Counted from the stretch's first letter, positions 28,314-56,795 are shown. The stretch is 64,000 nt of DNA from Nitrosopumilus sp. (GCA_965223425.1 OZ245003.1:224001-288000); one strand, 5' to 3'. Numbers and translations are program-made. Notes: generated by a model from the letters alone, not told the origin.

Positions 28314-28418
28314 GTCAAATTTTTTTTCTACAGCGCAAGCCATCGGGATTTTCTCTCCCTCTCCTATCAACCCCTCTGTAAATGACGTCAAATTTTTTTT
28401 TCTACAGCGCAAGCCATC
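28314..28418. repeat. Repeat-insert-repeat unit (31/32-bp duplication around 42-bp insert, period 73)
   Basis: GTCAAAT(8/9)CTACAGCGCAAGCCATC at 28314 and 28387; single copy in sister IS. Confidence 0.85.
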
Positions 28419-29172
28419 AAGATACAAAGACAGGTCCAAAAAATGACCCGTCTGGCACAAAATATACGATCACTCAACAGATCCGGGAGAATTCAAGCGC
28501 ACATGTGCGCACCATTCCAGTGCATCATGCACCCTGTATCGTACCGTCAATAGTCAAGTGACGGCCGCTTTCTTTTCGCATCCCACAGCAAACCAAAGTT
28601 TGCAAGGCCGGTACACACAACTAGTTCCTCGCGAAACTCCTCTATCGTGCCGTCGTACGGGTCTGTCATCCTTCTCTAGCTGCTCTGATGTCTCGGCCTT
28701 TTTTACCAGACGGGCCATCCTGTCTGCAGTAAGCAGGATTCCTGCCAGCACGGAATCTGCGAACCGGAGGTACCTGCACACGGTGGACTGGTCAACATCA
28801 AACAGCACACCCAGGGCATCCTGCGTCACGTTTGAGCGCCTGCGGAACAGCGCAAGCAGCAGGACGAACCTGCGGCCAGGCAGGCAGCGGTTTCCGGGAT
28901 CCGGTGTTTCGTCCTCTGAAAAGAGCGGCGCGTCTTTGCTGTGCCTCTTTGACTCTGCCACAAAGTCGTTGCAGGTGTAGTCAAACTGGTCAAGGTCATA
29001 CGGTAATCCCTGCAAGCTTTGCGCTGTTGTGCAGTATGCCGTGGATCACCTCCCTGCTGTGCAGCAGCGACGTGTCCGTATCAGGGCGGCCTGCATCTGT
29101 AACGGCCCACAGGCTGTCCTCGCGCAGCAGCTGCTACTCGCGCAGCAGGCCAATTGTCTTCTCGCGCCTGCT

Positions 29173-29424
29173 GATTGCTGCGTCCTTTTGCCTGATTGCT
29201 ATGTTGTTCTGCTTGATTGCTATGTTGTTCTGCTTGATTGCTATGTTGTTCTGCTTGATTGCTGTGTTGTTCTGCTTGATTGCTGTGTTGTTCTGCTTGA
29301 TTGCTGTGTTGTTCTGCTTGATTGCTGTGTTGTTCTGCTTGATTGCTGTGTCCTTTTGCTTGATTGCTGTGTCCTTTTGCTTGATTGCTGTGTCCTTTTG
29401 CTTGATTGCTGTGTCCTTTTGCTT
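29173..29424 (-). repeat. 21-bp tandem repeat x12 encoding heptads KQKDTAI/KQNNTAI
   Basis: Directly visible; sister copy has 3 units. Confidence 0.95.
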
Positions 29425-29603
29425 GAGCTCCCTTTGTAGCCTGCGTATAGTCTGTTCTGAAGATTCCATTACCTGTTGCGGCGATCAAAATGGATCTAAA
29501 TCTTTCGGAAAAATTTTTATGATTCAATTATGCATAAAGTCTCTTGATTCTAATTCTAGGAAGCAATGAATCTTTTTTGTCTTAATAGAATAATAATTTT
29601 TAT

Positions 29604-30557
29604 CTATTTTTGTAATCTTGATACAAGAGCTGCATAGATGAATGGCAATATTGTTGTAATTTCTGCATGAAGTGTTGCTTGTTTTGCATTCTGTGTTACT
29701 TTTCCCCATGAAATTGCTTCTTTAACCAATGCCCCACTAAGACTTCCATCAAACTCTTGTGCAGTTGTAATGTAAAACGCATAATCCATTCCATCTCTGT
29801 ATTGATTCCACCATAATGTGTGATGCTTTGATATTCCTCCACCAATCATAAATGCTCCTGATTTTTTAGCTTTGAAAATTAATCCTGAAAGTAATTCTGC
29901 ATCTCCTATCAAGTTAAGCTTGAAATCAGTATGTTTTTGTATAAACATCCAAATTTGACTTCCAACTGCTCCGTCTACAATTCCTGGAACTATGACACTA
30001 ACATCATTTTTGTATGCCCAATAGAGATATGAATCCTCTCCCAAATGTTTTCCAATCATTTTGCATATCTCGGCAGTAGTCATTTCTCTTACTCCGTTTT
30101 GATATTCTTCTTCTAAAAATTCCTGCATCTTTTCTTCAATGATTGGCCCATAACTCTCCATAGGTACCAGTACATTACCTAATCTGTGGATGTTTTGGTC
30201 TGCTAATTCTCCATCATCCATAGTAAAGGATCCTTCTTTGTAATGTGAAAAATGTCTAGCAATATCGTGATCTAATGATCCACAAGTTACCATAGCTACA
30301 TCAAACCATTTGTTTTTGATCATATCTTTAATGATCCCTCTGGTTCCAGTTGATACTATTGCTGCTACAAATGAGACAAATTTAAGACAATCTTTATCTG
30401 AAATCATTTTTGTTAAAATTTCTAATCCATCTGAAAGATTTACTGATTCAAACCCTCCTGATTTAGATAATTCTTCAAATATTTTTTCTATTGATGTATT
30501 TGTGTCAATTTCAATATCTTTTACCGGTCTACCTGGTTCTAGCACGTTTTTTTTCAT
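29604..30557 (-). CDS. Deoxyhypusine synthase
   Basis: HRLGNVLVP, PGIVDGAVG, IGGGISKHH, EFDGSLSGA...EAISWGK. Confidence 0.95.
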   Translation of the reverse strand: MKKNVLEPGRPVKDIEIDTNTSIEKIFEELSKSGGFESVNLSDGLEILTKMISDKDCLKFVSFVAAIVSTGTRGIIKDMIKNKWFDVAMVTCGSLDHDIARHFSHYKEGSFTMDDGELADQNIHRLGNVLVPMESYGPIIEEKMQEFLEEEYQNGVREMTTAEICKMIGKHLGEDSYLYWAYKNDVSVIVPGIVDGAVGSQIWMFIQKHTDFKLNLIGDAELLSGLIFKAKKSGAFMIGGGISKHHTLWWNQYRDGMDYAFYITTAQEFDGSLSGALVKEAISWGKVTQNAKQATLHAEITTILPFIYAALVSRLQK

Positions 30558-30639
30558 TGATACCAAATATAAGTTTCTACTTTGTATAAAATTAAAAAAC
30601 CACAGTTTCTGTTTTGTTAAATGATTCACCTTGATTTTC

Positions 30640-31203
30640 TATTCTTTGTTCATCTTTTCTATTTCTGGTTTTATTTTTAAAACCATTTTAAAATAATCCT
30701 TTTTGGGCTCAATACTAGCCACAAATAAGTTACTATCATCCATTGGAATGCTAATTAAAGTAACTTTGTCGCATTCTACAACTTGTTAACGTTATCATCA
30801 ATTAAAAAGCTCCAATGCATTGGAATGCTAATTAAAGTAACTTTGTCGCATTCTACAACTTGTTAACGTTATCATCAATTAAAAAGCTCCAATGCATTGG
30901 AATGCTAATTAAAGTAACTTTGTCGCATTCTACAACTGATGCTCTCTTATGCTAATTAAAGTAACTTTGTCGCATTCTACAACTGATGCTCTCTTATAAC
31001 CAATTTTATGAGACAGGTTTTGATTTCTTCCATTCTAGCATAGAGTAATGTAAAGACATTTGTAATTCACTAGGAGATAGATAATCTTCAATTCCTTCTT
31101 GTTTGATCTCATTAATTAAAACTCCTTTAGTGTTTACAACTCCTGCAAATCGCATTTTTGAATCCAATTTGATAATATTTTCACATAAATTATCATAATT
31201 CAT
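30640..31203 (-). pseudogene. Roadblock-like small protein, disrupted by frameshift and internal duplications
   Basis: IIKLDSKMRFAGVVNTKG N-terminus; C-terminal ASVVECDKVTLISIPMDDSNLFVASIEP interrupted by repeats. Confidence 0.65.
30741..30997. repeat. 43-bp repeat x3 separated by two identical 34-bp inserts (period 77), followed by a 47-bp tandem duplication
   Basis: CATTGGAATGCTAATTAAAGTAACTTTGTCGCATTCTACAACT at 30741, 30818, 30895. Confidence 0.9.
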
Positions 31204-55230: not shown

Positions 55231-55231
55231 T

Positions 55232-55639
55232 TTATATAGTTAAATCGATTAACAATTCAGGAATATGTCTTTGGTTATTTGAAATAGATTTTCCTTTGAA
55301 CTCTTTTTCACCATACTCTGAAATAACTTCAGAAGCATTAGATGTAATCTGTATGTTGGAGCCATCATTCCAAAACAATTCTCCAAACATATCAACTTCA
55401 AGCACTTCTTTGACTTGTCCCATACGATATGCCATTTTTCCAGATTTGGTATAACCATCTTCTGAAAGCAAACCATATCGACACATTGGACAAATCAAGC
55501 CATCAAAAACTCCTAAAAAAACATCGTCCAAAAAACAAGGAACTAAACCTTCAACAAGAAGTGTTTTACAATCGGGACATCCAAAGTCTCCAGATTTTAA
55601 TTGGATAGGGTCTTTCTCTGCCAAATTATTTTCAGCCAT
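55232..55639 (-). CDS. Zn-ribbon protein (YgiT/MqsA-like N-terminus)
   Basis: CPDC...CPMC with MqsA-like spacing. Confidence 0.55.
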   Translation of the reverse strand: MAENNLAEKDPIQLKSGDFGCPDCKTLLVEGLVPCFLDDVFLGVFDGLICPMCRYGLLSEDGYTKSGKMAYRMGQVKEVLEVDMFGELFWNDGSNIQITSNASEVISEYGEKEFKGKSISNNQRHIPELLIDLTI

Positions 55640-55655
55640 ATCTTTATCTTAATAA

Positions 55656-55874
55656 CTATTCAATGTATATAGTTTTTAAAATCAACTTACAGGTATATCT
55701 TCGTAAAACAACTATGACAGAACCTAACTTTATCTTGTAAATGCATTTCTGAATCTCACTTTTACTGCCTTTATCAAGTATTTTGTCTATTGTTTGTTTT
55801 GAAATGTGTCTTTGTTTCATTCTATCTCTTATGTGTACAGAGTAATATCTGGTACAGTTTCTGAAAGGATCCAA
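55656..55874 (-). CDS. DUF4258-like small toxin-family protein
   Basis: YSVHIRDRMKQRHIS...I...G...ILKTIY. Confidence 0.6.
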   Translation of the reverse strand: MDPFRNCTRYYSVHIRDRMKQRHISKQTIDKILDKGSKSEIQKCIYKIKLGSVIVVLRRYTCKLILKTIYIE

Positions 55875-56039
55875 GTCATAAACTCATAATCTTGTTGTCT
55901 GAGGTCATACATGTCATTATGGTAACACTAGAATAGGATTATTTAAAATGATCCTTGATTGATTCTTGATTCTGTTGGGTTATGGGGATATGAAATATTG
56001 ATCTTCTCCAGATTGAAAACCACGTCTAAACAGAATCAT

Positions 56040-56795
56040 TGCTTAATGATGCATTCTGGATAATAGTCTTCCACTTGTTTGCACCGTCAACCTCCATCTT
56101 TGAGGCCTGTGCTGGCGTTCTGCCTTTCAATGCTCCGTGCTTTTTGGTGAAATTGTAAGACTCTCATGCCATCCAAGACACAGGAGTATCCATCTTTTTG
56201 AGATGGTACCATGTCATGGTGGAGGGAACAAACGATACATGCCATCCAAGACACAGGAGTATCCATCTTTTTGAGACCTCTAAACACTTTCTCACGATCT
56301 CTTATTTTACCGTTCAGTCTTTCCATTTTGTTGTTGTCTCTGTCTCTTTTGCCTGCAAGATGGACATGTCTGACATGATTGGTTTTCTTTTCAAACACTT
56401 TCTTGGATGATTTCATGCAAGCTGGCAAACCGTCAGTGATGAAATTTCTTGGATTCTTTCCAGCTTGTAGTTTTGTAATGGATAGCAGGTTGTCTTCATT
56501 GTGCTGTAACTTGCTGTCTGCAATATCACTAGCCAGCCAGCATCTTGTATCATCATTCATACTTGATTATCATGTGTTCAAACAAATAATTCCGTTTACC
56601 GTTGATTTTTACCCATATTTCATCTGCCCTGAACAAGTAACCAACTCTGGGAACTATACCGTTTAGATACTCTGATGCCATCTTGGAGTATTTGCCAATC
56701 CATCTGTAGACTGTTGATTGGTTAACCTCAATTCCCATCATCTCATAATGGTTTGAAATATCCCTTACAAACATTCCCGAATAATACATTTGCAA
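56040..56795 (-). mobile_element. IS6-family transposase pseudogene
   Basis: STVYRWI, ADEIWVKING, FITDGL, NNKMERLNG; frameshifted; ends not resolved. Confidence 0.85.
56165..56276. repeat. Repeat-insert-repeat unit (exact 39-bp duplication around 34-bp insert, period 73)
   Basis: CATGCCATCCAAGACACAGGAGTATCCATCTTTTTGAGA at 56165 and 56238. Confidence 0.95.

Follow-up and report, generated by a model that had tools for sequence, protein, structure and literature searches.

Introduction

Off-target spacer integration by Cas1–Cas2, the adaptation integrase of CRISPR systems, was reportedly observed by Nivala, Shipman and Church (Nature Microbiology, 2018), who are said to have obtained neo-CRISPR loci in Escherichia coli overproducing the two proteins. 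Here, we analyse a 64,000-nucleotide stretch of DNA from Nitrosopumilus sp. (GCA_965223425.1 OZ245003.1:224001-288000; the window, C1:224001-288000 on contig C1) together with the remainder of its genome, in which short units consisting of a segment of local sequence, a spacer-sized insert and a second copy of the segment recur. We conclude that these units are very probably repaired full-site spacer integrations made outside the array by the type I-B Cas1–Cas2, with Cas4, of the genome itself. Ectopic CRISPR-type spacer integration had been proposed in a first-pass annotation of the window, and the proposal is borne out by a genome-wide period peak, a native cas module with its array and the depth of sequencing contigs. 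The units share with the neo-CRISPR loci of E. coli a spacer-sized insert, a repeat-length duplication of local non-CRISPR sequence and Cas1–Cas2 as the agent. In contrast to the products of overexpression, however, they are natural and fixed, and belong to an archaeal type I-B system with a 36-nt repeat; they number 29 in a single genome, with several more known from a second species, their inserts are mostly self-derived, some preserve the frame of the open reading frames (ORFs) that they enter and no array has been born among the 29 sites.

Integration into non-CRISPR DNA is also documented in other settings. For two species other than E. coli, the 2018 study had only 'circumstantial evidence', according to a preprint that cites it (bioRxiv 10.1101/148544), and the work is also cited in another article (PMC7054753). 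In vitro, the Cas1–Cas2 of Pyrococcus furiosus integrates into non-CRISPR DNA at repeat-length spacing with a preference for G1 and T2 (PMC6698737), and that of Streptococcus thermophilus does so at repeat-length spacing with a preference for G at the border (PMC6895254). Little other sequence requirement is evident in either case, as in the present genome; those reports describe plasmid assays of mostly half-site products, whereas the events reported here are repaired, chromosomal and past selection. In S. thermophilus and S. mutans, ectopic spacers have been described at repeats that are not leader-proximal (PMC7999890, PMC5338259, PMC8265633). The streptococcal targets, as presented there, are internal repeats of a true array, whereas those considered here are unrelated chromosomal sequences.

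Casposons represent a further comparison. Casposase is a homologue of Cas1, and casposon integration combines Cas1-family transesterification with target-site duplication. A casposon is several orders larger than the inserts described here, measuring kilobases; it has terminal inverted repeats, encodes a casposase and generates duplications of about 14–15 bp. Target duplication is common to both systems, but neither the size, the inverted repeats, the casposase nor the short duplication of a casposon is seen here.

The mechanism itself has already been described, both in the E. coli experiments and in vitro. Among the titles and opening lines of abstracts of the open-access papers and preprints returned by searches on ectopic spacer integration and on CRISPR in Nitrosopumilus, we found no description of natural genome-wide scars of this type. 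What is new is the natural scale, the self-derived inserts with their origin-proximal bias, the frame-filtered survival in genes and a signature by which such events can be found by scanning.

A genome-wide excess of units with a period of 71–75 bp

The genome comprises 2.64 Mb in two contigs, C1 (2.51 Mb, 41% GC) and C2 (123 kb, 47% GC). Direct repeats were sought on both contigs at all spacings between 40 and 400 bp, with at least 26 matches in 28 positions, and a pair was regarded as isolated if a single period occurred at that place and a gap separated the two copies. The scan returned 70 isolated pairs, 25 of which have periods of 71–75 bp (3, 9, 6, 5 and 2 pairs at 71, 72, 73, 74 and 75 bp, respectively); the remaining 45 are distributed over the other 356 periods, with at most four at any one of them. 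Extrapolation from these other periods predicts 0.63 pairs at 71–75 bp (Poisson p = 4e-31), which excludes chance at the genome level. The first-pass annotation had recommended a test for a peak near 73 bp, and a sharp genome-wide peak at 71–75 bp is what emerged.

For further analysis, four pairs detected only by an exact-match scan and one more complex site in the window (site 30741, described below) were added, and three copies of one inherited event were counted once. This curation gave 29 independent events, all of them on C1, while C2 has none. The median length of the duplication is 36 bp (interquartile range 35–38) and that of the insert 37 bp (interquartile range 36–38; range 33–45 bp), and the periods are 71 (three events), 72 (ten), 73 (five), 74 (seven), 75 (two) and 77 bp (two). 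The two copies are identical in 19 events and have diverged in ten. No second, different spacer has been added at any of the 29 sites; nothing here thus points to scars growing into new arrays. A relaxed scan for older events yielded a few more diverged pairs at a period of 72 bp; these were left out of the count, and at least two of them are neighbouring tRNA-like sequences.

Native CRISPR-Cas systems

The genome contains the following CRISPR-Cas loci.

C1:1357299-1362540, array 1: 74 identical 36-nt repeats with spacers of 34–38 nt
C1:1682473-1682945, array 2: seven repeats of a different 36-nt sequence with spacers of 35–38 nt
C1:1379849-1380392, second adaptation module: a C-terminal cas1 fragment and cas2 beside a DDE transposase ORF

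The spacers of array 1 are 34, 35, 36, 37 and 38 nt in length in 22, 21, 17, 11 and 2 cases, respectively. Beside this array lie cas4, cas2 and cas1, the last as an ORF of 331 aa with a full-length match to the NCBIfam cas1 family (208.6 bits). The adaptation genes are followed by a 557-aa ORF with no family match, cas7 (Csh2-like), cas5 (Cas5h-like), cas3 (HD and helicase domains) and cas6b, an arrangement that corresponds to a type I-B layout. The search for cas genes that the first-pass annotation had suggested was thereby rewarded with an intact cas1–cas2–cas4 set next to a 74-repeat array whose 36-nt repeat and 34–38-nt spacers have the dimensions of the ectopic units. The 331-aa cas1 and the cas1 fragment are the only Cas1 matches in the genome, and the window itself, as had been stated, is devoid of cas genes: no Cas1, Cas2 or Cas4 match falls within C1:224001-288000. 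The closest Cas1 matches found in public genomes, at 61–62% identity, come from metagenome-assembled genomes with Nitrosopumilus in their titles.

Counted from the end of array 1 that faces the cas genes, spacer number three (C1:1362329) is 100% identical to C1:198216-198249. The cas3, cas5, cas7 and cas6b ORFs appear intact despite this self spacer, which suggests either tolerated self-targeting or inactive interference.

Proposed mechanism

The duplication has the length of the native repeat and the insert that of the native spacer, which points to a full-site Cas1–Cas2 product; no other known process fits. The integrase would load a prespacer of about 35–37 bp, usually taken from the chromosome of the cell itself. 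One strand of the target would then be attacked at a site that often reads 5'-GT and so resembles the border of the native repeat, and the other strand would be attacked about 36–37 bp away, this spacing being dictated by the built-in ruler of the enzyme and not by sequence. Gap filling would double the 36–37 bp between the two cuts, giving the order segment, insert, segment with a period of 71–75 bp. An ectopic unit of this kind is probably not processed to CRISPR RNA (crRNA), since the duplicated sequence is not a CRISPR repeat; inserts derived from the chromosome would then cause no autoimmunity and could persist.

Units in the window

The window contains four sites, named after their first nucleotide. 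Positions in this list, and those given below without a contig name, are counted from the first letter of the window.

28314..28344, site 28314: first target copy, starting with GT
28345..28386, site 28314: insert, 42 bp as delimited in the first-pass annotation
28387..28418, site 28314: second target copy, with one extra T
30741..30782, site 30741: first copy of a 42-bp local segment
30783..30817, site 30741: insert; 30782-30818 (37 nt) is a 100% match to C1:2168064-2168100
30818..30936, site 30741: second segment copy, the identical insert repeated and third segment copy, the whole 77-bp unit being tandemly duplicated
30902..30997, abutting site 30741: exact, insert-free tandem duplication of 47 bp
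51655..51691, site 51655: first copy of a 37-bp target, the bottom strand starting with GT
51692..51727, site 51655: insert, 36 bp
51728..51764, site 51655: second target copy
56165..56203, site 56165: first copy of a 39-bp target
56204..56237, site 56165: insert, 34 bp
56238..56276, site 56165: second target copy

The order segment, insert, segment had been claimed for all four loci. It holds at all four; sites 28314, 51655 and 56165 are as described, and site 30741 is more complex, with 2.6 units. Sites 51655 and 56165 are exact two-copy repeats with a period of 73 bp (37 + 36 and 39 + 34 bp, respectively), each with a unique insert; the former interrupts an ORF of an IS110-family transposase and the latter an ORF of an IS240-like DDE transposase. 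Neither insert has a match elsewhere in the genome, and a search of a phage collection with the complete units 51655-51764 and 56165-56276 (blastn in 'distant' mode, E ≤ 0.01) returned no match. Site 28314, which adjoins an ORF of an IS5-like helix-turn-helix protein, consists of 31 + 42 bp, and the extra T in its second copy places the starts of the copies 73–74 bp apart; alignment with paralogues suggests that the real duplication would be about 38–40 bp and the insert about 35 bp.

Paralogues of the interrupted elements reveal the state before integration. At site 51655, the alignments of the two flanks overlap by 37 bp in five IS110-type copies of 98–99.7% identity, in which the target thus occurs once, and at site 56165 the flanks likewise overlap by 37 bp in a diverged paralogue near C1:918 kb (78–83% identity). 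The unit of site 28314 is also carried by two further copies of the same insertion sequence (IS), at C1:532092 and C1:1305096, whereas copies in the vicinity of C1:1966 kb, C1:1752 kb and C1:2260 kb are without it. It therefore arose a single time and was subsequently carried along as the element multiplied. The statement that excision of one repeat and the insert restores the host sequence therefore stands at these three sites; site 30741 has no paralogue.

At site 30741, which lies in non-coding DNA adjoining a deoxyhypusine synthase gene, the 77-bp unit (a 42-bp local segment and a 35-bp insert) is present 2.6 times with a single insert sequence that occurs twice, and the duplication of the whole unit came later than the integration. 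Slippage and aborted integration are both possible origins of the insert-free 47-bp duplication. The placement of all units in dead IS elements or pseudogenes, as first described, is roughly correct within the window and does not extend to the genome as a whole.

Origin of the inserts

The inserts had been described as foreign, which does not apply to most of those that can be traced: full-length matches (33–39 nt, 88.6–100% identity) to other places in the organism's own chromosome exist for 17 of the 29, the insert of site 30741 among them. Fifteen inserts have a single-copy source, which lies between 2.6 kb and 1.25 Mb from the site, more than 60 kb away in 12 cases and less than 25 kb in three. 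Self matches are far rarer among the native spacers (one of 79 versus 17 of 29; Fisher p = 3e-11). Neither the inserts nor the native spacers match contig C2 meaningfully, the longest matches being 14–18 nt, and a comparison of the inserts with one another revealed no shared sequence except for the one event inherited by three IS copies.

The sources are not evenly distributed. When the one native self spacer was included, five of 16 single-copy protospacers fell within one 60-kb window (permutation p = 0.005), which holds orc1/cdc6 and the gene for the large subunit of PolD (DP2) and in which the cumulative GC skew turns. A further four sources come from C1:1295-1421 kb, a stretch that surrounds the CRISPR-cas locus and is close to the opposite extreme of the skew (1.48 Mb). 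In P. furiosus, the chromosome of the host is reported to supply most new spacers, the hot spots being OriC, CRISPR arrays, transposase genes and ribosomal DNA, and self-spacers in true arrays are thought to be lost through autoimmunity (PMC5737086). In keeping with that account, the ectopic inserts look like a sample of spacer uptake that escaped the autoimmunity filter.

Targets and reading frames

The duplicated segments are ordinary local sequence. Empty sites, in which the target occurs once, are found in IS paralogues of further events, with 34 copies for C1:2466835, 13 for C1:105005 and nine for C1:1565093. GT occurs at one or both borders of the duplication in 13 of the 29 events, where about 10% would be expected (p = 1.4e-6), and GT likewise opens the native repeat whichever strand is read; beyond this border, the targets show no resemblance to the native repeats or the leader. 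The G/GT border and the repeat-length spacing agree with the in vitro behaviour of Cas1–Cas2 from P. furiosus and S. thermophilus on non-CRISPR DNA.

The period is divisible by three in nine of the 12 events in single-copy DNA versus three of the 17 in multicopy DNA (Fisher p = 0.006). Several of the in-frame events lie inside long ORFs that stay open across the unit.

C1:2401614, ORF of 1112 aa: PLD-like and SNF2/helicase domains on either side of the insertion
C1:1271799, matrixin-like ORF of 411 aa: reads through the unit
C1:849893, ORF of 436 aa: reads through the unit
C1:1714194, ORF of 281 aa: reads through the unit

Two homologues of the 1112-aa protein (G015 and G066; 40–48% identity) are continuous across the position of the unit and lack residues 96–129 and 97–134 of a 240-residue query in which the unit corresponds to residues 102–139. 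For the 436-aa ORF, homologues align mostly over residues 8–103, ahead of the insertion. It would appear that single-copy DNA keeps mostly frame-preserving events (72 or 75 bp), while IS elements and other repeated DNA keep events of any length. The survival of scars in neutral DNA alone, as initially supposed, does not agree with the nine of 12 single-copy events that are divisible by three or with the several that lie in long ORFs. Likewise, an integrase of relaxed repeat specificity, which had been postulated, need not be assumed, as the accumulation of rare off-target events in a genome rich in IS elements would look no different.

Sequencing evidence

Contigs (Logan) of four public runs were placed on positions 51300–56600 of the window, of which run X5 covers only part. 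A 94-nt contig spanning 56174-56267, with the end of the first copy, the whole insert and 30 nt of the second copy of site 56165, occurs in three runs from two studies. Its depth compares with that of the two flanks as 444 versus 345/410, 1200 versus 1199/1198 and 4.2 versus 3.2/2.24, in runs of which those richest in the window may be the source data of the assembly and so do not form an independent sample. An artefact of the final assembler is excluded for the insert of site 56165. The check by sequencing proposed in the first-pass annotation has therefore come out in favour of one insert, at flank depth, in contigs and not in raw reads. A joint that connects 51654 to 51728 and skips 73 bp was present at about five times the unique depth; polymorphism of site 51655 was considered and rejected, since this depth fits the five empty paralogues instead.

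Related genomes

Cas1 was found in 23 of the 60 sampled genomes of the genus. The closest Cas1 found (61% identity) belongs to G073, a chromosome of 1.70 Mb and 33% GC with one Cas1 match and an array in which a 36-nt repeat occurs at least 66 times, with periods of 70–72 bp and a mode of 71. Seven isolated pairs in this genome have periods of 69–73 bp, while the remaining periods together account for 22 (p = 4e-8). Among the seven, one is a mini-array with a true CRISPR-like repeat and is not ectopic; the inserts of two of the other pairs match elsewhere in G073 at 100%. By comparison, G072, a genome of 2.36 Mb from the same genus, has no Cas1 match, and none of the six isolated pairs in its first 800 kb has a period of 60–85 bp, while three 800-kb pieces of the genome studied here contain eight, seven and eight pairs at 71–75 bp. 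The scars thus track the presence of CRISPR-Cas and its unit size, which, with one positive and one partial negative among related genomes, amounts to support rather than proof.

The mini-array of G073 (G073:C1:43914-44022) is a two-repeat unit, and its 37-nt CRISPR-like repeat ends in ATTGAAAC, unlike that of the main array. A third, solitary copy of the mini-array repeat is located at G073:C1:1512313-1512351.

Alternative explanations

Several observations weigh against integration by the native type I-B complex. No source was found in the genome for 12 of the 29 inserts. Inspection by eye of the flanks of 16 protospacers in both orientations revealed no common protospacer-adjacent motif (PAM), whereas a shared PAM would be expected from Cas4-assisted type I-B uptake; only one of the 79 native spacers has a match from which the native PAM could be read. 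Apart from the dinucleotide at the border, the targets resemble the native repeats no better than random 36-mers do (mean of 13.6 versus 13.9 identities in 36). The duplication at C1:1730910-1731016 is identical to the array-2 repeat at 22 of 36 positions (random 13.1, s.d. 1.7), and this site may be a decayed true repeat pair and not an ectopic target. The ectopic periods (mode 72–74 bp) exceed the native ones (70–74 bp, mostly 70–72) by about 1–2 bp. The sequencing check is confined to two sites and to contigs rather than raw reads. Finally, all steps of the mechanism are inferred, and the enzyme is assigned by inference.

Two more points of the same kind concern the module responsible and lead to the first alternative, in which the mechanism is the same and the enzyme came from the second cas1–cas2 pair or from a module once linked to the orphan array 2. 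A cas1 fragment and cas2 persist at C1:1379849-1380392 beside the DDE transposase ORF, and array 2, with its 36-nt repeat and 35–38-nt spacers, fits the size of the units equally well. Moreover, five ectopic sites share an island with array 2, and the diverged copies in ten of the 29 events indicate that these are not very recent. On the other hand, the identical copies in 19 of the 29 and the 100% identity of several inserts to their source speak for recent activity, and the only full-length cas1 lies in the array-1 module; G073, moreover, has scars and one Cas1 match. We consider another module improbable as the agent.

An origin independent of Cas proteins would involve either tandem duplication in which end joining or template switching supplied filler DNA, or else a mobile element that is short but has a long target duplication. 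Local duplication processes do act at site 30741, as seen from the insert-free 47-bp duplication and the duplicated 77-bp unit, and three sources lie less than 25 kb from their sites. Slippage and end joining, however, produce no fixed length, whereas both parts of the units are fixed at native CRISPR dimensions, and 12 of the 15 single-copy sources are more than 60 kb away. The inserts have no common sequence or ends, apart from the one inherited event, and so are not copies of a mobile element; furthermore, the 800 kb of G072, which has no Cas1 match, contain no pairs at these periods. Such an origin is very unlikely. Three specific candidates were also rejected. An insertion sequence or miniature inverted-repeat transposable element does not agree with inserts that share nothing (the inherited event aside) or with duplications of about 36 bp, which are not short; a casposon does not agree with inserts of 33–45 bp in a genome in which only cas1 and a cas1 fragment were found; and a functional neo-CRISPR array does not agree with the lack of a second spacer at all 29 sites or with duplications unlike the native repeats (except at C1:1730910).

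Least credible of all, to the point of being negligible, is an assembly artefact or a set of decayed true CRISPR arrays acquired by horizontal transfer: short-read graphs are indeed broken by repeats above the word size of an assembler, the Logan contigs do terminate within repeats, C1:1730910 does resemble the array-2 repeat and a true mini-array, its repeat CRISPR-like, lies at G073:43914, but the insert of site 56165 is present at flank depth in contigs of three runs from two studies, paralogous IS copies carry the 'repeats' once, so that these were not imported as repeats, and an artefact would not copy distant pieces of 33–39 nt, favour GT borders or preserve the frame in single-copy DNA.

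Biological significance

With integration by the native Cas1–Cas2 as the preferred reading, a broader proposal can be advanced, tentatively and with somewhat more doubt than conviction: in this marine ammonia-oxidising lineage, off-target integration may act as a recurrent natural mutagen that leaves an unfiltered record of spacer uptake, mostly of self DNA with a hot spot at the origin, and that places in-frame insertions of 24–25 codons in open genes. If this is true, CRISPR adaptation has a measurable cost and is at the same time a source of coding novelty. The natural frequency and cost of off-target integration have been largely unmeasured so far, and the 29 fixed events, together with those of a second species, display the ruler, the GT border preference, the sampling of self DNA and the selection on reading frame in vivo. 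The signature, isolated direct repeats with the period of the native repeat plus spacer, is applicable to all CRISPR-bearing genomes and could be used to measure how large a mutational load adaptation imposes and to look for arrays that are newly arising.

Other features of the genome

None of the ten ORFs scanned around array 2 is a cas gene. Its neighbours include ORFs for TraG/VirD4-type and TraG P-loop/HerA-type ATPases, an ArdC-like protein, MmeI and a type ISP restriction-modification enzyme, and the surrounding island extends over approximately C1:1672-1735 kb, with 44–47% GC measured over C1:1690-1735 kb. On the basis of this gene content, the region is classed as an integrated conjugative-element-like island. 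Five ectopic sites lie within it. In Thaumarchaeota, integrated conjugative elements are known to carry stand-alone arrays without cas genes (PMC6563490). The likeness to the islands described there holds for array 2 only, as the 29 dispersed units have unique, non-CRISPR 'repeats'.

A blastn comparison of contigs C2 and C1 (word size 20, E ≤ 1e-20) gave no match, even to the abundant IS families; C2 may therefore represent either a replicon of its own or a contig of foreign origin. The window also contains two short tandem arrays, perfect or near-perfect and unrelated to the 73-bp units, at 17865-18025 (24 bp × 6.7) and 29168-29426 (21 bp × 12.4). IS elements are greatly expanded in C1, the flank of one site having 68 copies at 80% identity or more, and the genome is the largest among those sampled from the genus.

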